Below are positions 27,459-64,000 of a stretch of DNA of 64,000 nt, piece by piece. The first letter of the stretch is position 1; every line of letters begins with the position of its first letter. Made by a program: the position numbers and the translations under genes. Origin of the DNA: Cystobasidiomycetes sp. EMM_F5. Its lineage: Eukaryota. The notes under the pieces were generated by a model. It made no database searches, was not told the DNA's origin, and saw only the letters and a program-made list of their open reading frames with translations. The stretch lies in NCBI GenBank assembly GCA_051047955.1, contig JBPGPT010000009.1, positions 248,001 to 312,000 on the forward strand, given 5' to 3'.

Positions 27459-27509
27459 CAATGGGTGCAAAGGAATGACGCAACTTTGCTAAAGACAACC
27501 TGACAAGTC

Positions 27510-50130: not shown

Positions 50131-50925
<795 letters not shown>

Positions 50926-51906: not shown

Positions 51907-52481
51907 ATGAATGCTCCAAACAGATTCGAGCTGCATGTGCTCAACGATGGGGAATCAAAGTCAGTAGAGCATTGAATGCCTCTGCAAGTGCAACATGACT
52001 TACCTGACCTGCTCTTGCGTGCAGAATTCTGGTCGAAGAAGACACCAAGATCCCCAACGCGGCAACCGTAATTATCAACAAGGAGGATCATACGCTGGCT
52101 GGCATGCTTCGCAGTCAGCTGTTGCAAATGGAACACGTCCTCTTTGCCGGCTACAAAGTACCTCACCCCCTAGAACCGCGCTTCATCATCAAGATCCAGA
52201 CGACTGCCGAGTCTACACCCATTCAAGCTGTCCAGGAAGCGTGCACTGCGCTCATCACACTTCTAGCTCGGATAAAGGACGAATTGCAGAGGGAATTTGA
52301 TACGGCTAAAGCTATGGGAACGGTCGCTCCCCCAACAGCTCTCGGCGTGCAAGCGCAGTATGGCCAGACGAGCACACGGCCAGCCGACGGCATACAGCCA
52401 GAAGGCATATACGGCGCAACCGCAGCAAACCCGTACGATGCAGAGGGTATCCCCGCATCCGGTTTCTCCGAGTTTATCTGA
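51907..52481 (+). CDS. RPB11: RNA polymerase II subunit Rpb11
   Basis: MNAPNRFEL..EDTKIPNAA..KEDHTLAGMLRSQLL..VLFAGYKVPHPLE. Confidence 0.96.
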
Positions 52482-53392: not shown

Positions 53393-53516
53393 CACTGCAG
53401 AACCGGGCTGTATTTTGAAAGGGTCAAAAAGGGCATGAAAGACCAAACAGCCTTGCGCCAGTCCCAAAGCCGTTGTGCAATAGTCGAGCAATAGCTGAAC
53501 AATTACATATGATTTT
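53393..53516 (+). repeat. Left imperfect terminal inverted repeat / subterminal region
   Basis: GCAGAACCGGGC (53397-53408), GAAAGACCA (53437-53445), TTGTGCAATAGTCGAGCAATAG (53473-53494) and TATGATTTT (53508-53516) all recur inverted and in the same order at 62612-62780. Confidence 0.75.
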
Positions 53517-53531
53517 TGTAGCAATTGCTCG

Positions 53532-53692
53532 TTGCCTTCATTACTCTTGCCCTTGACTTGCGCTTCCCTTGCACAGGTCTTGCGCCCCCATTGCCTTTGC
53601 CTTGCTGTAGCAATTCAAAGCTATTGTTCACGCATCAACATTGCCTTCCCTTTGCCTTGCTTCGGTCTGGCAAAAGTCCACTGCTTTGCCTT
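53532..53692 (+). repeat. Cluster of short subterminal repeats TTGCCTT
   Basis: Copies at 53532, 53591, 53597, 53641, 53652 and 53686. Confidence 0.6.
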
Positions 53693-53842
53693 GTACGACC
53701 TTTCCCAATAGTAGCATATGGTGGCGAAGGGTCAATGCACGCGACAGGAAGACGCAGCAATAGACGGCAGGAAGCTAGTTGATTACACCGTCACGTTGTT
53801 CTACAATCACAAAATCACACTTTGATGTTCTCTGCTTTTGCT

Positions 53843-55532
53843 TCACAGATATTTGGCGACCTTAGCCATGTTACGGTACCTTGCAATGCTAGCTGCCTCC
53901 GCCTTGTCCACGACCTTGCGTCCCATTCCAGCATAAAATGCTTGCCCTTTGCAGGGAGGCTCGCATCCACCGCAGTGACCGATATTGACGTGCTGGTAAA
54001 GGTCGTTGCTGCCTTCCAGGTTGACGAAAATTCGATGAGGCTGCCGGGAAACAAGCACGTCAGCGCAGAAGTGACATTGCCAAAGTATGTGCTCACAGTC
54101 CGTGCACATTTCTGACGACGAATATTCCGCTTGGGACTCTCGATGTGAATATGACTCGGAGTGAGGCAGGAGGTGTGGTGGCAAAGGTGCGAAAGATGCA
54201 GACTACCTTTGGCCTTTTGGTTTGCTTTGCGATACTTGCGCAGATCAGGATGCCTGCCATTCTGCATCAGCCACAGTTGACGTGCTGATGAAATTGCGCT
54301 CACTTCGGACCGTACTTCGCAACGGCGAGTACCTTATGAAGCGTCAATGTTTTGAAGCCTTTTATAGTCAGAGTTGGGTAAGCGCCCTAGCAAATGAGTA
54401 GATTAGCAAAATCATACGTCTATGTTATGTGTGTCAGAGAAGCTCACGGCTTGATTGGCGCCCATCATCAAACAGCCATGAGATAATGGCAGTTTGACGG
54501 CAGCAGGGCGCTGACCCCACTTGCTCGCCTGTTTGGCGATGGCATCCAGGGCTTGGTTCTTGCTCAGGTGATACCAATCCTTCTTTGCGTCTTTCGCCGG
54601 TGGAGTGATTTCCGGCGATGGCTGTAGTTGTGGGGCCGATGGAGATCCTCTAGGCGGGGTCGACAGAACGCGGGCGGGTGGCCGCGAGATGACAAAGACC
54701 TCAGTCTTAGACGGTGTCTCAACCCGCACTCGAATTGGCGATTTAATCCTGGAGATTTTGCGAGCTTGAACGTCTCTGGCCGGCGGCGGTGTGTGCGGAA
54801 TTGCCGCTTTGACGACGACTGGGGATGGAGACTGCGGATGAGCCTTGACAACGACATCTGCTTCCACGAATCGCGTGTGCACAGGGGTAACTTTGACATT
54901 TTCTGAGCGAAAAGACAGTCAGGCAAGACCGACTGAAGATTGCGGAAAATCATACCTTTTTCTTCGATTATTTGTAGACCGGCACGGTCTAAGCAAGTGT
55001 GACACACTTTCTGTGCATCTCTGACGGCATCGTAAGCTTTGTCCAGAGCTTTCGTGAGCCTGGCTGGGTCTTTGCCATAGGCATGTTCAGCAACCTGCAA
55101 TCTGGCCAAGTTGCTGCATAATTCGGCCGTCTCTTGCTGCAGATCTTTGACGAGGATGACCAACTGTGTCGTATTATAGGGATGGCGATGGTCCTTAATA
55201 GGCCGGATTTTGCGCTGCGGCGAGGTCGACTGCTGGCGGCCAGAAAGACGGCTGAAAGCCTGAACGTGTGCTGGACTGCGCACTTTGCGATGTGCGTTGG
55301 TTGCAGTACTGTCTAGTAGTGTATGCATGCTGTCGACGGTATGTCGTCCAGCAGCGTGATGCCCATGCAAAGAGGAAAGAGGAAATTTGGGTGACCACAC
55401 CGAAATCGAGCAGAAGTCGAGGACAGTGCGCTGTGGCTGCACACATCGAACGTTAACGTGTGATTTTCCCAGATTACGTCGTCGTACAAGTCGTAGCTTC
55501 TTCTGCTTTGCCAAAATCCCTTGTCTGATCAT
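53843..55532 (-). CDS. His-Cys box / His-Me finger (I-PpoI-like) endonuclease A with long basic, Pro-rich N-terminal extension
   Basis: Exons ..54956, 54902-54448, 54386-54304, 54253-54097 and 54040-53843 splice in frame to GCLMM..GAYPTL..LHKVLAVAK..SHLCHHTSCLTPSHIHIESPKRNIRRQKC..HCGGCEPPC. Start uncertain (55532 or 55329). Confidence 0.8.
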
Positions 55533-55729
55533 GGAGTCCTCGAGGACTGTTGACGGCAGCTCGTCCTGTGCGTGCTGCACGGAAAAATGGAAAAGACCAT
55601 GTGGATCCTGGCGTCTAGTCTTGGACAAAAACCAGCGTCCCTTGCCTGCTGCTGTCTGTCTAGCTGCTGCAGCTGTACTGCCCGGTATCCGTCTATTTTG
55701 GCTGGCCGGCGGTCACGTGCTCGAAAAAA

Positions 55730-56538
55730 ATGGACGACACTGCAGCTCAGCTGAAAGCACTGTCAAAACTCACGCAAGAAGAAGCGAAGGCTGCAATCAA
55801 GAGAATTAGAGACGGAGGCTTGGTTGGAGACGTCATGTATAAGCCAGCTGTCGTAATCCCCATTACGGATTGTATCTTGGCTCAGCCGACAGACCCAGTC
55901 AGTTGAAGTTCATCAAAATCACACGTGTATGTTCAGTACTGATGATTGGCAGGAGTGGAACGGCGGCTATATGACCATCAAGGTCAAATCGGGATGCTCA
56001 GACTTTGTCCATCGCGTGCTAGTTGTGGCGAAAGGGTGGGAACGAAATCTACGATGCTCAGCAGAGCCTCGCTAAACGTACTATGCCAGAAAAACACATG
56101 TCAAAGCTCTGATGCAAGCAGGAAACGACGCATCGCACCGATGTCACAACGTGTTGTGTCTGAATCCTGACCACATCGAGGTGGAGACGCATGCGGAGAA
56201 CGCAGCTCGTAAGATCTGCTCATCAAGAGTCAGCCTTCTTATAGTGATACCGGAGATGCCCGTTGACTCACTGTTGCATCCAGTTAATGTACCTCGTACA
56301 GATTGAAGATCAAGATTACATCGTCGCTCCGCCAGAATGTGCACACAAGCCTGAATGCATCCCTAGATTTGTAGAACTCGACTGTGAACGCGTCTTGTCA
56401 GACCAAATGAGGGCAAAGGTAGCTGCACTTCGAGAGTATCAGGCTGAACTTGGCCGAAGTCCCAGTAAGGTTCAAGTCACCCGTAAAGGGAAATCGGCGA
56501 CAGAATCAGAGTGGAGCACCGATGAGGAGGGACGTTAG
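55730..56538 (+). CDS. His-Cys box / His-Me finger (I-PpoI-like) endonuclease B (~210 aa)
   Basis: Exons 55730-55897, 55953-56035, 56090-56228 and ~56284-56538 give DCIL..GGYMTI..VHRVLVVAKG..SHRCHNVLCLNPDHIEVETHAENAARKIC..ECAHKPEC. Confidence 0.85.
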
Positions 56539-56654
56539 GCTGCGGAGAGTCAGGCAGAGAGTCAAAATAAAATCACACGTGTTCATTCGGAGTTCGAACT
56601 TCTTGCAGTCTTTAGTATGGCTGTGCAGCTTTGGCTGGTCGATTGCTCAGTCAA

Positions 56655-59600
56655 TCAAATTAGTCGTACTAGTCCTCGATTGAGATAGAATTGTCTGACG
56701 TTTGCCGGTAATACCGCATGATCTAGCTGAGTCGGAACGACATGCGGCGGAGGTTGGCTGCTGACAGTTCCCAGCGCGACGACGTGACCGAGAGGGGCGA
56801 AAGGTTCAAAGCGATATCGTTCCACAGGGCCTAGATTAGTCGGCTGGTTAGGCGTCTTGCACATCCAGTCAACCGAGAGGAACACGTGGTATCGGCTGGC
56901 CCACTTATGAGCGAAAATAGCTCTGACTGAGCACGGCGTGCCGACTTCATCGGTGCGGTTGATCAAAGTGAAGTCGCCAGTCGTGATAGTCACTCGGCGA
57001 TGCAACAGATTGTCGTACATAACGATTTTCTTGAAACATTTGATGCGACCAAGGTTGCCTGTGAGAAGAACTGCATTTCTGTCATAGAAAGCCGAATAGG
57101 CTTGTATGAGGCTATCCCTGAATTGCAAAATCTGTCGCATCGTGCCGACTTCTGCGTGCGATTTGCCGATGTCGTCAACGAAATTCGCCGCTTTGACCTC
57201 CTTCTTTGTCATCTCCGACACCAAACGGATATTGTTGAATCTGCAGAACAAGAATGTGTGATTTTCACGGGTGATCTATCGCATAGCAATGCATAGCTCA
57301 CCGGTCCGGAATGCTGACTATTGTGACCCCTTCTAAAACTGATTTGTCGAGGATCTGCTCGTTGTCCACTTCGACAATATTGTTGTCGTGATAGTATCCA
57401 GAGAGCAATGTCGGACATACTGCTTCGAGATCTAATATAAAGCGAGCTGTTTGGTCGACGTCGAGCTCCTTGCTGGTCTTGATGAGGCGCAACGCCTGAC
57501 CGATGTTGTCTTCGCGAATGAATGTGGAGCCAGTGTCTCGTTTGTTAGTTTTGCTCATCAGTCCCTTGGGCAAGCGATGAACACTTTCATCGATGGATAC
57601 GCTCGCATTTAACAGATTGCCCACAGCTCGAGCCGAGTCGGCCATATGTAGGGCCGTATGCATGTTGGGGAGCGCGTAATCAAGACCAAAGGGTTCCAGC
57701 AGTGCAGCCAGAGCGATCCGACATTGACGAGCTGTAAGATCCAGGTCGGCGTACATCTGCTGGGTAAATTCACGCTGCAGCGACAGCCACACGTGTCGAT
57801 GGATGAGCACGGCGACTGCAACGACTTCGCGGAGGACTACATCACTACCCTGCGCCTTGATTGTCAGTGCTTTTGGGCGAATACCCCTGTTGCGGACTGA
57901 TGGCATTATTATTGTCAAAACCAGGGGAAGTATCGATATCATGGCGACAGCTTCGTGCTGTGTATAGCTTCCGGCGTGCCCGATGGACCGAACAGAGGAG
58001 TATGATTTTGGCATCGGGAATCCGCCAGCTTTGCCTCTTGCCATCGCTTTGGAGATCGCATCGACGGCCGCTGGCGATAGGACATGCTCGACCAATGGGA
58101 TCAGAAAGCGGTCCTTTACGAGACCAGAGGAGTTAGCATGCGAGACGTCGACCGGAAATTGAGAGTGCGGGTCCACAAGGACTCCCGTCCGAATATAAGG
58201 GGATGATTTTTCAGCTAATCCATACCGTGTCAGTTGCTCTTTGCATGCTTTGTCCGTAGGCTGTTCGATTGCCTCTGCTCGAATGGATTCCATTGCACCG
58301 GCTTGCCGATGGCTCTTGAACAGCTCAACTGGACTCATCAGCATATCTCCTAGACTAGCTTTCGTCACCAGGCAAAACCGACAGCCACAAATGGCATTGG
58401 GCGACAGACATCCTGCCATACTGTTGGCCTCTGGCATGTCGAATCTCGCATAAGTCATGTCCAGATAGATATCATACTTGCGTCCTTTCAAATCGACTTC
58501 AAACGGCACGACCGCATGACGTGCCAGTTGGCGCAAGGAATGTTCGAACGCGTCGTAGAAATTGGCGCCTCCGTTGATCATCAGATCATCAGCCTGGCAT
58601 CCCAAAGCAGCGTACCGAACTCACCATATGGAGTATAGCCGTAGATGAAATGGTTCCGCATTTCGTCGCGCACCCGAAACGGTAGATCCGCTGGCATAAT
58701 GTAGAAACCACCTATAGCGTGATGTGCGGTCCTGAACGCACCAAACTTGTCGTAGTAGTGGGAGAGGTGTAACACAATGGTGTGATTTGAGTCCTCCTGC
58801 TCCAATTCTTCCATAGAGACAACGCCGTTCGCAAGTTCCAGTTCGGCTCGCGTGAAGGGCAAACAAGAAGATTGTGCAAAGCCCAGTTGCTGTTCGCTTG
58901 CTGGCCAATCTTTTCCCCAAATCACACATGTCTGTTAGTGGGGCATTAGCTGATTAGACGGAAGAGGCGATGGTTTACTTTCGTTGATCTGGTCTGTAGA
59001 ATCACTCTTGCGGCGCGAAATCTTCAGCTCGGACGTTGTCATTATATCTTCTATCAAAACTTCTTGCTCTTCGTCGACCAGTAGAAAGTACGGTCCCGCC
59101 GGAAAACCGATGCCCTCTTCGTACGTAGCTAGCAATTCCGCCCATTGTGCCGCATGTGGGCCAGATTGTAAAAACAGGATCAGCTCGGCTCGGGTCTTGA
59201 TAGGCTGTACATGAGCCGTGATTGCACCGTCCTTGTCGCCCTGACGGAAGATACCGGAGATCCGTCCGAAGTAGCGACGCTGTGCTTGCTGATATTCGAC
59301 AATGCTGCCTGGCCAAATCCAAGCTTGTAATACCAATGTATGATTTCAGCTCAATCGTAAGCGCCTGGTGATCTCTGAGCACGCACCTCCATCTTGCGCT
59401 CGCAGAGGATAATCCTGTCGCGAAGATGCTATGCTTTGCCACCATAGCTGGCCATGCCAGACTTCGTAACGCTTAGCTAATTTGATCCCCAATCCCTGAT
59501 GAAGCTGTCTGAAGAGATCTGGGTTGCGCAGGATACGTTTCTCGCAAAAGTCCGCTAAATCATACTGGAATGATATGGCGGTTTTAGTAGTTGGTCCTTT

Positions 59601-60388
59601 CCATGTCTTGGTACTTCTGACTTTGACGTTCACGGGCCGCTGCACGACCCTAGTAAGTTTGAGACTCGCCATAGACTTCAATAATGCTTTCTTGCTAACG
59701 GGGAGCTGTGATGGATCAAAATCAGGCAGGAGCAGGATTTCACGGAGTTGGGAATAAAGCCGCCGAGACAGCTGATTAGTAGAGACCCATATCGCGATGG
59801 CGAGGTTAGTCTTTGCTGATGGGCTCAGCGCCTGGGCATCATCGGCCTCTTCGCCAGGACCTTCACCCGGATCATCTTCGTCAAATCGCACATGATCATT
59901 CCAAACCACGTGCAGGGGCTCATGCACGCCCATGGAATTGTTCGATGCCGAGCTTCTTCCTCCGATGCTGCTCACAGAAGATTCGGTGTCGGAACATGTG
60001 GATTCGCTGGTATCGCTTTCGCTGACGCCAGGGTCGGAGAGAGAAACATCTTCGAATGCGGGATCTGCAAACACATTTTCCACCAGAAGTCGTGTCAGTC
60101 AAAGCTTTGGCTAACATATACGTATGATTTCGCACCTATAGCTCCGGCAGTCTCCACTGGTGCTGAGGCTTCGCCAGGGGGCAGTTCTTCAGGCCAGTAT
60201 CCATCGTCACCAACTCCGTAGTCCACATCATCCATGTCCATGTGTTCATTGACCACATCGACAGGCTCTGCGACTGATGCGCGCTCGACGGCTCGGCTCC
60301 GCTGTGCGCGCTTGCGGAGTTTGGGTTGCCGCAGAGGAACATCGCTACGACTGGTCGCATATATGTTGGACAGCTTGGATCCTGCCAT
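56655..60388 (-). CDS. DDE transposase, CMC/EnSpm(Plavaka)-like, ~1,100 aa, six exons
   Basis: Motifs WHGQLW, RAELEL, HYYDKFGAFRTAHHAIGGFY, FDMPEANSMAG..CGCRFC, DVSH, LPNMHTALH and SIDESVH. Exons can be joined in frame without stops; two joins need AAG or GAG acceptors. Confidence 0.8.
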
Positions 60389-60613
60389 CAGTAATGGTCA
60401 GTCTCGTTAGATTCTGCTGGAGATTTGACTTGTGATGTGTGCGGTCGAAGTCAACCTCATTTACGCGGACTTCATCAAACGGCTCCGCCACTTTGATGCG
60501 AAACCTGACTTGCATCAGTGGTCAATCTCGACACAACCCATCCAGCAAACCACGATCCTCTGACGGAAGCTCATGATGGACTGATTCCACCTATTGTCTC
60601 ATGCTCAGGCGTC

Positions 60614-62406
60614 ATGCCTTCCCGTAGCAGCTCTGGCCGCTCCAGCCAAAAGGACAAAAGCCCCGCTCGGGGCCCGGCTGGCCATTCACGTAAAGGTTCG
60701 AATGGTGCAAACGAGGATCTGACTGAAGTGGGTAGTGACTCGTGCTGCACAAACGGTTGTGTTGCCGTACTGACATTGCGTAGAATGATGGCAGCAGGAG
60801 GGATGGGACCAGGCGCAAGAGTACCAATGCAGTGACCCACTAACATCGACATATGATTTTAGCATAAAAGCTGACTGTGGGTGTGCGATACAGAACACTC
60901 GATTCGACGATCTTCTAGACGAAAATCGGCCCCTCCAGACAGACGCTCGCTCTCGCGTCAACGAAATCAGACAGGAGGTTGCGGACAACCGCCGGCAGAA
61001 GAAGACCAATGTTGTTGGAAGTTCGGACACATCGGATAGCGAGGAACAAGAATCCGACAGACGAGAGGCTGTCATTAACTTTAGCCAAGATGCACCCGAT
61101 TCCTCTCAGAGCGGCCGGCCGCTGCAGGCTGTACCACCCTCCCCAAGGGGGCAGCGTCGGCGTCAGCCTGTTACAGCAGCTACATCGTCCAAGCGCAAGG
61201 CCACAGAGTCAAACGTCGACTCGTCAGCAGAGGCTGATGCGGAAGAGGCCGATGATCCAGCCTCACACAAACGTGCCTCGAAGAAGAACAAGAAAAAGGC
61301 AACAGGGGCAGAGGTGACTTACAAAGCAACTTCTGATGGTCGCAAATGGACTTCCAAGCAACGTGGAACTCCCACTGATGTGGTGAGCGGAACTTAGACG
61401 TGCGATTTTGATAAAATACTGATCTGGACTAGTACAGTACGATGGCCTTGGTGCAGAACTCAAGACATATATGAACAACTACTTTGCGTACAAGGCTGTG
61501 TGGGGAGATGAAGACATACATACCATCCTGAGCTGCCTTCAACAAGGCGAAGGTCTGGAAGCGCTGGGCTGGGATTTTCAAACCGATCAAGGTCTATTTG
61601 TGAGCTTTCGAATGGTCTGACGGACCGTATCTGACTCAATGTGGCAGCATCATTTGAAAGGCAAAATGCTGGCGTACCGTAGCACACAGCAGGTGAAATT
61701 ATTGAAAGCCGCGTCTGAAATCGCCGTCAAATTTCTTCGAGACCTCTCGGCTGGCAAGGAATATCTGGAAGGAGAGTGCGTCACAAGCGTTTGCCCGGCA
61801 CAGCATAATACCAACGTACGATTTTGCAGAGATACCCGTGATTCTGACGACCACAGTCCCATACTTCCCAACTGGGCTCAGGTCGTCAAACTAGTGCAGA
61901 CGGATGAAGTGGTCAAGACTATATTGTCCGCAATTCTGCCAGGAATCAATGTCGCTGCCGTATGGAACCCTCGCACGGAGCAAGAGATTGAAGCGGAAGC
62001 GGAGCACAAATTCAAAATGAAATTGACCCAATTGGCTTTATTTTTGGTCAGATGCGAGGCCTGGCGACTACGTAGCCAGTACAAGGTCATCAGTGGGAGA
62101 GTAGTTGAGGTACGAGATCTGTACGGCGATGAATACATGATGATCTAAAAGCATGGTTGATATTCGTAGAGAGGGAAATCACGAAATTGGGATGGAAGCA
62201 CTATTTCAGGCATGCTGCTCAGTTTCTCCACGTCCAAGACCGCTGTCGTCGACACTAGCGGCGATCCAGTCTTCTTTCCCATAGCGGAGCGCACTGTCTC
62301 TCGAACCAGACATGACAAATTTGTCGACGGCGACGAGTGTGGATTGGATGACATGGAGTTTGTAGACGGCGAGCTGAGAATGAAAGAGACAATAGCGGAG
62401 GGTTAA
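60614..62406 (+). CDS. Element accessory protein (multi-exon, basic/acidic low-complexity N-terminal half), divergent from the transposase
   Basis: Spliced MPSRSSSGRSSQK..; long open exon from ~60894 to ~61381 with NLS-like KRASKKNKKK; further exons to a stop at 62406. Family not recognised. Confidence 0.65.
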
Positions 62407-62611
62407 AGCGTCCATAAACGAACGGCCTGCAGAGGTTCTTCAGTGTGTACACAGTCTGAGCGTCGTTGTTTACTAAATTTGCAACAAATGCTGCATCGGG
62501 AAGGCTTTTGGTAGCACTGCGACAACATTGTGAATGCTAATCGGCCTTGTGTGCCCAGACCGCATCGCATGCGCTGGACAGGCAGATAGGTGGCGCAAGA
62601 CTTGGGCAAGT

Positions 62612-62784
62612 AAAATCATACAATTACATTCTGACAATCTACACACAACGCGTGTCAAACTCTTGCACGTCTACTGCACAAGCATTGCCCGGTCATTGCT
62701 GAGCTATTGCGAAAGTCTGTCTAGCTCTTGCCGATCTTGCGTGGTCTTTCCTGGTCTGTCGCAAAAAGGCCCGGTTCTGCTATG
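62612..62784 (-). repeat. Right imperfect terminal inverted repeat / subterminal region
   Basis: AAAATCATA (62612-62620), an 18/22 match block (62660-62681), TGGTCTTTC (62742-62750) and GCCCGGTTCTGC (62769-62780) mirror the left end. Confidence 0.75.
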
Positions 62785-64000
62785 TCGGACAAAAGCGGAA
62801 GCTAGAGGAAGTTGACATTAAAAGGGCTGGCGTGCGAAAGCTAACGTTTGGATAGACTGATTGTTCACTTTGCACAGCTTTAGACTTGTTTGAAGACGCA
62901 GCAAGCGTAGTAAAGACTGCGAAGTTGGACTGCGGCTTTTGCGGGACTCGCAGCAGCTGGAGATTATCCTGACCTTCCCACTGTCATCTTTCCTCTGACA
63001 CACAAGCATTCAGTTGCTGCTTGTCTGCCTTCCTTTACACGTCTGAGACCTTCTACTATATACCGGCAGCTGGATCTGCCTTCTTCACTTAAGCGCTGGT
63101 CGACAAGCACATAACCCCGACTGATCCCACCATTTCGAATCCTTAACCATCTCGTTCCAAAATCACACAATCTTCTGTCGACCTTTGCAACCATGCTTCA
63201 TTCGATAAACGGCCCTTTTCCGATGGCATCGCAAGTCGTTCCGCCCGCTCAGCTGCCCGTGCGCTCCGGTAGGTGGCGGAAACACCCAAAGCTTCGCTCA
63301 ACAGTCTGACACTCGAGCCTTTTGCACCGATTTTGCGACGAATTTCTCTCGCTCGCTTGTCCGCACTCCCTTTGCACTCTGCTCCACCCATCTTCTGTTG
63401 CGTCCTGCGTACCCTCTGAATGCGCACAAACCGTCTGTCTCGGGACGCCATTACCCTAAACATCTGACTGAGCTCCGGCTTGTTGGCGACGCATTCTGCC
63501 CGATAACGCACGTCACTATTCCAACACTGTGATTCTGCGAGGACAGCTTGGGCACCAGGGCCAGTCAATGCGACTCTGGAAACGCCTGTTCCACTGCATA
63601 CCACGCACTGGTCACACAACGGCCAACAGAGGGCATACATAACAGGCTATACGCCGACAGTACGGCCCTTCACACTTTGGCCGCAGAAGATCCCATTGCA
63701 TAATTTGCGTGCTTTGGAGAAGGGCTGTTTCGGTCTCACCCATCCTCTGCAAAGCGCTGCCGTCGGTCGCTATACTCAAAAAATCTCGCGACGAGGGCCA
63801 ATTAGCCGAACGCATCATCCGCACGCTTTCTTCGCGAAGCGCACACTGCCACCAGCGCCCTTCTCTGCAAATAGACAGTCAGGTCTACCTGCGCCGCATT
63901 TCTCTCCCTCGCATCTGGATCGCAAGCTTGCAACTTATCGCAAGCGTCACTTTGCCTTTACGGGCGCCCGTTCCGGGCCGCATCGAATTTCGCAAAAGCC

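Follow-up and report, generated by a model that had tools for sequence, protein, structure and literature searches.

What are two diverged genes for I-PpoI-like proteins doing side by side in a nuclear genome, next to a transposase gene? The window analyzed here is a stretch of 64,000 nucleotides from Cystobasidiomycetes sp. EMM_F5 (contig JBPGPT010000009.1 of assembly GCA_051047955.1, positions 248,001 to 312,000 of the forward strand; positions below are counted from the first letter of the window). At 53843-56538, it carries two divergent genes with a His-Cys box, here called A and B. An earlier reading of the letters alone (the sequence-only reading) had taken them for paralogous nucleases and a possible heterodimer. 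I found that A and B are intact sister paralogues in a unit of about 9.5-10 kb, together with a Plavaka/EnSpm-like transposase gene and a fourth gene, X. The most likely explanation, although a tentative one, is that they are accessory sequence-specific endonucleases of a transposon.

Two genes of the I-PpoI family

The two genes and their parts are as follows.

53843-55328, minus strand: gene A, five exons, 421 amino acids, an open spliced frame with four GT-AG introns
55328-54956, 54902-54448, 54386-54304, 54253-54097 and 54040-53843, minus strand: exons of gene A
54097-54253, minus strand: exon 4 of A, with the catalytic core S325-C353 (SHLCHHTSC...N..R..C)
55329-55729: 401-bp spacer that separates the starts of the divergent genes A and B, with one copy, at 55458-55466, of the motif described below
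55730-56538, plus strand: gene B, four exons, 214 amino acids, an open frame
55730-55897, 55953-56035, 56090-56228 and 56284-56538, plus strand: exons of gene B
56090-56228, plus strand: exon 3 of B, with the catalytic core S99-C127 (SHRCHNVLC...N..R..C)

Both gene models were predicted from reading frames, GT-AG sites, and collinear alignment to relatives. The introns are 53, 61, 50, and 56 nt long in A and 55, 54, and 55 nt long in B. The acceptor of B intron 3 was placed at 56283/56284, which gives a 55-nt intron and six residues more than the simplest model of B, because these residues fill a gap against the relatives. In A, an alternative donor at 54315, for the second of the introns shared with B, would also keep the frame. 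In the A protein, an N-terminal extension of about 230 amino acids (a helical part, then a Pro-rich one) precedes a single complete His-Cys-box module (residues 227-389); the B protein consists of one complete module (residues 4-174) and a charged C-terminal tail. The modelled ATGs of A (55328) and B (55730) are 401 bp apart, or about 197 bp if A starts at the upstream in-frame ATG at 55532. The spacer is presumably a shared promoter.

Do the two genes belong to the I-PpoI family? In a six-frame pattern scan of the window, the full His-Cys-box core was found only at 54151-54183 (minus strand) and 56142-56174 (plus strand); a third, loose core match at 27465-27497 proved to be unrelated. The read-through open reading frames (ORFs) of both genes match the Pfam family PF05551 above its curated cut-off of 27 bits (A, E = 4e-13, 50.1 bits; B, E = 3.3e-11, 43.9 bits). 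The core of A aligns with residues 95-125 of I-PpoI without a gap, so the spacing of H98, C100, C105, H110, E114, N119, R122, and C125 is kept, although the E value of this single-sequence comparison is only 0.05-0.09. A profile built from 36 relatives, none of them from the window, matches I-PpoI at E = 4.8e-11 to 2.4e-10. The same profile matches the spliced proteins with 104.3 bits for B (profile positions 14-173) and 62.6 bits for A (profile positions 14-163). Since it covers residues 227-389 of A and 4-174 of B, there is one complete module per gene, that of A being the more divergent.

The H-E-N-R-C signature, equivalent to H98, E114, N119, R122, and C125 of I-PpoI, is present in both proteins. 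The catalytic residues are S325, H326, and N347 in A and S99, H100, and N121 in B. The putative zinc ligands of A are C268, C328, C333, H338, and C353, followed by C379, C382, and C386; those of B are C48, C102, C107, H112, C127, C149, H151, and C155. Eight Cys/His ligands for two zinc ions are accounted for by sequence in each protein. The second cluster of B (CAHKPEC, residues 149-155) has the C-x-H-x3-C form seen in I-PpoI, and that of A (CGGCEPPC, residues 379-386) is a C-x2-C-x3-C variant with H378 directly before it. The residue roles assumed for I-PpoI, such as the His general base and the metal-binding Asn, are those quoted in passages of PMC9587614. The His-Cys-box/I-PpoI family is group 12 of Jablonska et al. 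2017. By their sequences, A and B are members of the I-PpoI protein family with intact catalytic and zinc positions. They are not classical intron-borne homing endonucleases, since they are stand-alone genes with GT-AG introns between protein-coding genes and do not lie inside a group I intron of ribosomal DNA (rDNA).

The sequence-only reading had already named much of this. Both core motifs are present as it wrote them, the gapless alignment, the signature, and the zinc ligands uphold the I-PpoI spacing that it saw in both genes, and the second zinc cluster was located in each. Its estimate of about 200-400 bp between head-to-head starts covers both distances given above.

A and B are paralogues with shared intron positions

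How are A and B related to each other? In a blastp comparison, 27 of 78 residues are identical (about 35%, E = 3e-10). In a tree of 55 modules, the topology with A and B as sisters was the best found, 9.3 log-likelihood units above the free quick search, with a P value of 0.74 in the approximately unbiased test. The branch of A is long (2.14 vs 0.5 for B), so long-branch effects are possible. Both genes fall outside two groups of the tree, the well-supported B-like clade (11 rows) and the "CFNP" clade (23 rows). The picture is, in my reading, that of an old local duplication; A would then have diverged faster and would have gained or kept its extension of about 230 amino acids. The paralogy proposed by the sequence-only reading is borne out by the blastp match and the sister tree, and the low identity and the long branch of A agree with its view of an old duplication that kept both catalytic sets.

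Three introns lie at equivalent places, as that reading had also stated, and agree in phase (0, 2, and 0). The first shared intron follows residue 276 in A and residue 56 in B, eight residues past the first Cys, in phase 0. The second is in phase 2, in codon 304 of A and codon 84 of B, within a few residues of the aligned VAK. The third follows residue 356 in A and residue 130 in B, exactly three residues past the RxxC cysteine, in phase 0. Are these positions peculiar to the pair? A metagenome scan for B-like relatives yielded 15 short loci (contigs of 1.1-2.6 kb), none of them an orthologue of B. Of these loci, L010, L008, and L014 also have an intron in phase 0 between the first Cys and the GY motif. 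In L005, L006, and L007, the tblastn alignments break at the residue of the first shared intron; in L012, the break is at residue 52. At the VAK position there are breaks or in-frame read-through in L014, L003, and L004. Since distant fungal relatives have introns at the same positions, these positions are ancestral to this branch of the family and not peculiar to the A/B pair. Thus, they support the gene models and the paralogy but imply no special relation between A and B.

The wider family

A HMMER search with the two core exons against 1.84 billion representatives found 2054 proteins (cluster representatives) at E <= 1e-3. Among the best 150 of these 2054, 50 have I-PpoI-type modules, defined by Glu and Cys at the E114 and C125 positions, and 100 are HNH_3-like and mostly tandem; this ranking favours multi-module proteins because module scores add up. 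The 50 I-PpoI-type proteins have one module in 40 cases, two in nine, and three in one. In five of the ten tandem proteins (P0001, P0002, P0004, P0011, and P0016), the catalytic His or Asn is lost in one module; the five look like single-chain pseudo-dimers with one active site. P0025 (1216 amino acids) and P0015 (857 amino acids) have two I-PpoI-type modules joined to C2H2 zinc finger arrays and would be natural zinc-finger nucleases.

B is collinear across all three exon junctions with P0147 (51 of 159 residues identical), P0066 (52/142), P0117 (50/163), and P0101 (54/165), which corresponds to 31-37% identity over 142-165 amino acids (32% over 159 for P0147). The fold was compared with that of I-PpoI through the relative P0147. 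Folded with a 36-row alignment, P0147 gave a predicted local distance difference test score (pLDDT) of 94.6 and a predicted template modelling score (pTM) of 0.87. The top four Foldseek matches of this model were all I-PpoI (E = 1.3e-3 to 4.5e-3), and VIA-align superposed it on I-PpoI residues 2-141 with Z = 8.5 and a root-mean-square deviation of 3.5-3.8 over 115-119 residues. The next families were I-HmuI (Z = 5.4) and the Nuclear Factor 1 (NFI) DNA-binding domains (Z = 3.5). A weak similarity of the family profile to the NFI DNA-binding domain was also seen (E = 0.025).

When one genome of each prokaryote species was scanned, along with viral contigs, no B-like relatives turned up, in agreement with the occurrence in eukaryotes only that passages of PMC5714182 report for the group. 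A word-based protein search with the 52-residue A exon gave no candidates, and neither A nor B was matched by an identical database entry.

A four-gene unit with a Plavaka-like transposase gene

What lies next to the pair? Beyond B, in convergent orientation, is a transposase gene, followed by gene X, which is divergent from it. The unit is thus made of four genes in two divergent pairs, A/B and transposase/X.

56655-60388, minus strand: Plavaka/EnSpm-like transposase gene, six exons, five GT-AG introns, an open frame of 1134 amino acids
60388-60136, 60064-59387, 59323-58979, 58900-58625, 58568-57302 and 57240-56655, minus strand: exons of the transposase gene
60864-62148, plus strand: gene X, at least 393 open codons in three exons, with introns 61383-61437 and 61600-61647

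The nearest ESM Atlas clusters of the transposase carry Plavaka or Transposase_21 (score 0.94). An in-frame TAA at 58935-58937 was considered as a break in the transposase and rejected, as it sits in a frame-keeping 78-nt GT-AG intron (58978-58901). Since the transposase is modelled as an intact frame of 1134 amino acids, the unit may be autonomous. Gene X has no match in Pfam or PDB, and its best ESM Atlas match (0.80) is not useful.

The modelled introns across the genes of the unit are GT-AG introns of 48-78 nt. This size, together with the one relative of B that has a species name (a hypothetical protein of Diaporthe ilicicola), suggests a fungal host. GTGAGC opens six of the 14 (54447, 54303, 54096, and 57301 on the minus strand; 61383 and 61600 on the plus strand), and GTGCG opens two further ones.

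The unit sits amid housekeeping genes. The window is eukaryotic and contains genes for Symplekin, NTF2, XPG, a DEAD-box helicase, and Pex24, and the left flank of A has host-type ORFs resembling RPL27A (50131-50547) and Rpb11 (52008-52481). A tRNA search gave no match, an Rfam scan of 50-64 kb found no family, and long direct repeats were absent from 50-64 kb.

A motif confined to the unit

Does anything tie the nuclease genes to the transposase gene other than their proximity? A short motif does.

53812-63168, both orientations: motif AAATCAYAC-N5-TGTT, with all 15 exact copies of the window inside this span

The 9-mer AAATCAYAC occurs 15 times in the window against 1.07 expected, the maximum in 100 shuffles being four. 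The TGTT five bases past it is common to the copies, although it was not used to find them. When one mismatch is allowed, 25 of 39 copies lie in 53.5-63.5 kb. In the left part of the span, the copies are spaced by about 0.5-0.8 kb.

Modelled introns account for 713 nt, or 7.6%, of the span and hold seven of the 15 exact copies (binomial P = 5.5e-5). The motif had already been noticed when some of the transposase and X introns were placed, but the borders of these introns were set by the reading frames. The seven are in introns 1 and 2 of A, intron 1 of B, and introns 1, 2, 3, and 5 of the transposase gene. Copies with one mismatch lie in the X intron 61383-61437 and in an intron-like sequence that ends at 60862, just before the first modelled X exon. 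The reverse complement of the motif resembles a 5′ splice site and is the modelled donor of A intron 1. That both orientations occur points to a site at the level of DNA or to a common origin of the introns of the element. The motif was not found in 14 of the 15 B-like metagenome loci.

The motif ties A, B, the transposase gene, and X into one unit, apart from the flanking host genes. It is chiefly on this confinement that the assignment of the nucleases to the element rests. For A and B, the analysis shows that they belong to the family by sequence, that their catalytic and zinc positions are intact, that they are paralogues with the gene structures given above, and that they are linked to a transposase gene.

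Comparison with known systems

I-PpoI of Physarum polycephalum (PDB 1A73 and 1CYQ) has the same core spacing as A and B, S-H-x-C-x4-C-x4-H-x3-E-x4-N-x2-R-x2-C. B also shares its C-x-H-x3-C second cluster, and the model of the B-like relative P0147 shares its fold over I-PpoI residues 2-141, at about 18-20% identity in the structural alignment. In contrast to I-PpoI, A and B are protein-coding genes of the nucleus, interrupted by spliceosomal introns, and not ORFs in a group I intron of rDNA, and A has a C-x2-C-x3-C second cluster and the additional N-terminal region of about 230 amino acids.

Closer in layout is KolobokP of animals. According to passages of Kojima and Bao 2022 (PMC9587614), this element has a DDE transposase gene with an I-PpoI-like His-Me nuclease gene downstream on the complementary strand, and the role proposed for the nuclease is to help the element, not intron homing. 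In both systems, an I-PpoI-like nuclease gene is convergent with a DDE-type transposase gene; the likeness is one of layout only. The differences are several. The transposase is of the Kolobok type there and Plavaka/EnSpm-like here, and the hosts are animals there and fungus-like here. KolobokP has one nuclease, whereas this unit has two diverged paralogues and a fourth gene, X. The long terminal direct repeats of KolobokP are not seen here in 50-64 kb.

Passages of Kojima 2025 (PMC12730594) place Plavaka in the CACTA/EnSpm-Mirage-Chapaev-Transib (CMCT) group and describe its capture of the cargo gene TET/JBP, its termini (TGT..ACA or CATCA..TGATG), and its 2-3-bp duplications. The neighbouring transposase resembles Plavaka most, though its match to the Pfam family PF18759 is below the cut-off. 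No mention of a nuclease cargo was found in the literature passages on Plavaka. Likewise, the literature search turned up no Plavaka- or EnSpm-type element described as carrying a His-Me nuclease, supplements and subscription journals being outside the search.

Finally, a clade of uncharacterised fungal PF05551 proteins (P0147, P0151-P0156, and P0066), one member of which is annotated as "hypothetical protein diail_5750 [Diaporthe ilicicola]", has the same module architecture, N-terminal helix, first Cys, and both zinc clusters, and has two of the three intron positions in common with A and B. Its members stand alone in the contigs seen, and A and B both fall outside it.

Accessory nucleases of a transposon?

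As in KolobokP, for whose single His-Me nuclease such a role was proposed, A and B would serve the transposon that carries them. Whether they cut DNA, in which dimeric form, at what target, and to what advantage for the element is inferred as follows. The I-PpoI-type sheet of each protein would contact the DNA, and the His general base and an Asn-bound metal would make the cut; each protein would probably act as a dimer. The breaks may help the element to copy or rearrange itself. The transposon setting guessed by the sequence-only reading is plausible, as an intact Plavaka-like transposase gene adjoins B.

Several observations weigh against this explanation. The base composition, the GC content at third codon positions, and the indices of repeat-induced point mutation of the unit are the same as those of host genes. 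The longest transposase exon matches PF18759 (Plavaka) weakly (E = 8.5e-4, 19.1 bits), below the cut-off of 26.3, and a word-based search for long transposase homologues found nothing. Repeat search, blastn, and local alignment revealed neither terminal inverted repeats nor target-site duplications, the right end possibly lying past the window, and the published Plavaka termini with 2-3-bp duplications were not found at this unit. The unit is seen as a single copy, within the 64-kb window alone. All 15 B-like metagenome loci hold a single His-Me gene with no second nuclease and no transposase on their contigs of 1.1-2.6 kb, and in L006/L007 the B-like gene lies between a repeat-protein ORF and a long ORF that, by eye from its translation, was taken for a P450 gene.

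Two side observations concern the extent of the unit. Between 53397-53589 and 62780-62589 there are three short inverted matches in collinear order, one exact over 12 nt and two over 22 nt (86% and 82%), none significant by itself; they may be what is left of subterminal inverted repeats of the unit. Separately, in a comparison over 46-64 kb, eight 151-nt contigs from two phyllosphere metagenome runs are 99-100% identical to the window and all fall in 53857-60131, none coming from the flanks at 46-53.8 kb; since the runs were picked using 53.7-56.7 kb and have a depth of about 2, the sample is biased, and no conclusion on copy number was drawn.

Could A and B instead be free-standing nuclear genes, either selfish and homing-endonuclease-like or domesticated by the host, that sit beside a transposase gene by chance? 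This is the strongest rival, less likely than a transposon role yet to be taken seriously. The family is large, with its 2054 cluster representatives, relatives such as L006/L007 lie among ordinary-looking ORFs, and the failure to find element ends and the host-like composition point the same way. However, exact copies of the motif of the four genes' introns and spacers are absent from the other 54 kb of the window, and the convergent layout is that of KolobokP. If A and B were only chance neighbours of the transposase gene, they would be an ordinary duplicated member of a known Pfam family.

The heterodimer of the sequence-only reading is the next candidate: A and B would form an obligate heterodimer to which each contributes one active site, and the site that it cuts would be asymmetric, for example a transposon junction. 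Both genes have full catalytic sets and a divergent promoter region in common, and the motif of the element is bipartite and asymmetric. Single-chain tandems with two or three modules make up ten of the 50 I-PpoI-type proteins among the best 150 of 2054, and the module types at given positions are conserved between tandem proteins, so two unlike modules can work together. On the other hand, 40 of the same 50 proteins have a single module, I-PpoI itself binds its target DNA as a homodimer (in passages of PMC9587614), and the long helical extension at the N-terminus of A has no counterpart in B. The B-like relatives are alone in the loci that could be judged. The sequence-only reading had named homologous elements that usually carry one gene as a finding that would speak against it, and this is partly what was found: all 15 loci have a single nuclease, but upstream DNA is long enough to judge in only two independent loci, L013 (which overlaps L003) and L007 (which overlaps L006), and they are not orthologues of B. 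Taken together, an obligate heterodimer appears improbable. Of that reading as a whole, the paralogy, the intact sites, the introns, and the age stand, and the transposon setting is plausible, while the donor junction as a target is speculation, no element ends having been found.

Somewhat less probable again is that one or both proteins are DNA-binding regulators and not cutters, which might, for example, control transcription or splicing of the element via the dispersed motif. The His-Me fold has been reused for DNA binding. The weak NFI matches of the profile (E = 0.025) and of the P0147 model (Z = 3.5), the loss of the catalytic His or Asn from one module in five of ten tandem relatives, and the position of the motif inside the element itself, where cutting would be self-harming, are in line with a regulator. 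A and B, however, keep the general base, the metal-binding Asn, the Glu, the Arg, and all zinc ligands, which is not expected of pure binders.

Least likely of all, and a long shot, is that an A/B heterodimer of a fungal Plavaka-like transposon targets the element's own AAATCAYAC-N5-TGTT sites, most of which are in introns and spacers, and that the self-made breaks drive gene-conversion-type copying or copy-number control; if true, such self-marking for an own nuclease would be a mode of transposon propagation not described so far.

Significance

In the literature passages searched, KolobokP in animals was the only published precedent found for a DNA transposon with a protein-only homing-endonuclease relative, and passages of a 2026 review of transposon endonucleases (PMC13565253) name KolobokP as the example carrying one. 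Thus, the kind of association is known; what would be new is such an I-PpoI-like nuclease in the form of two diverged copies linked to a transposon of Plavaka-like type. If A and B are indeed accessory nucleases of a transposon, this would be a second independent case, in another transposase superfamily and another kingdom, and would mean that I-PpoI-type nucleases are recruited by transposons again and again. With both paralogues diverged and catalytically intact, the pair would then lend itself to the question of how an element profits from such nucleases. The large family around them, which is uncharacterised in fungi, with its tandem forms and C2H2 zinc-finger fusions, is relevant to the natural history of programmable nucleases.

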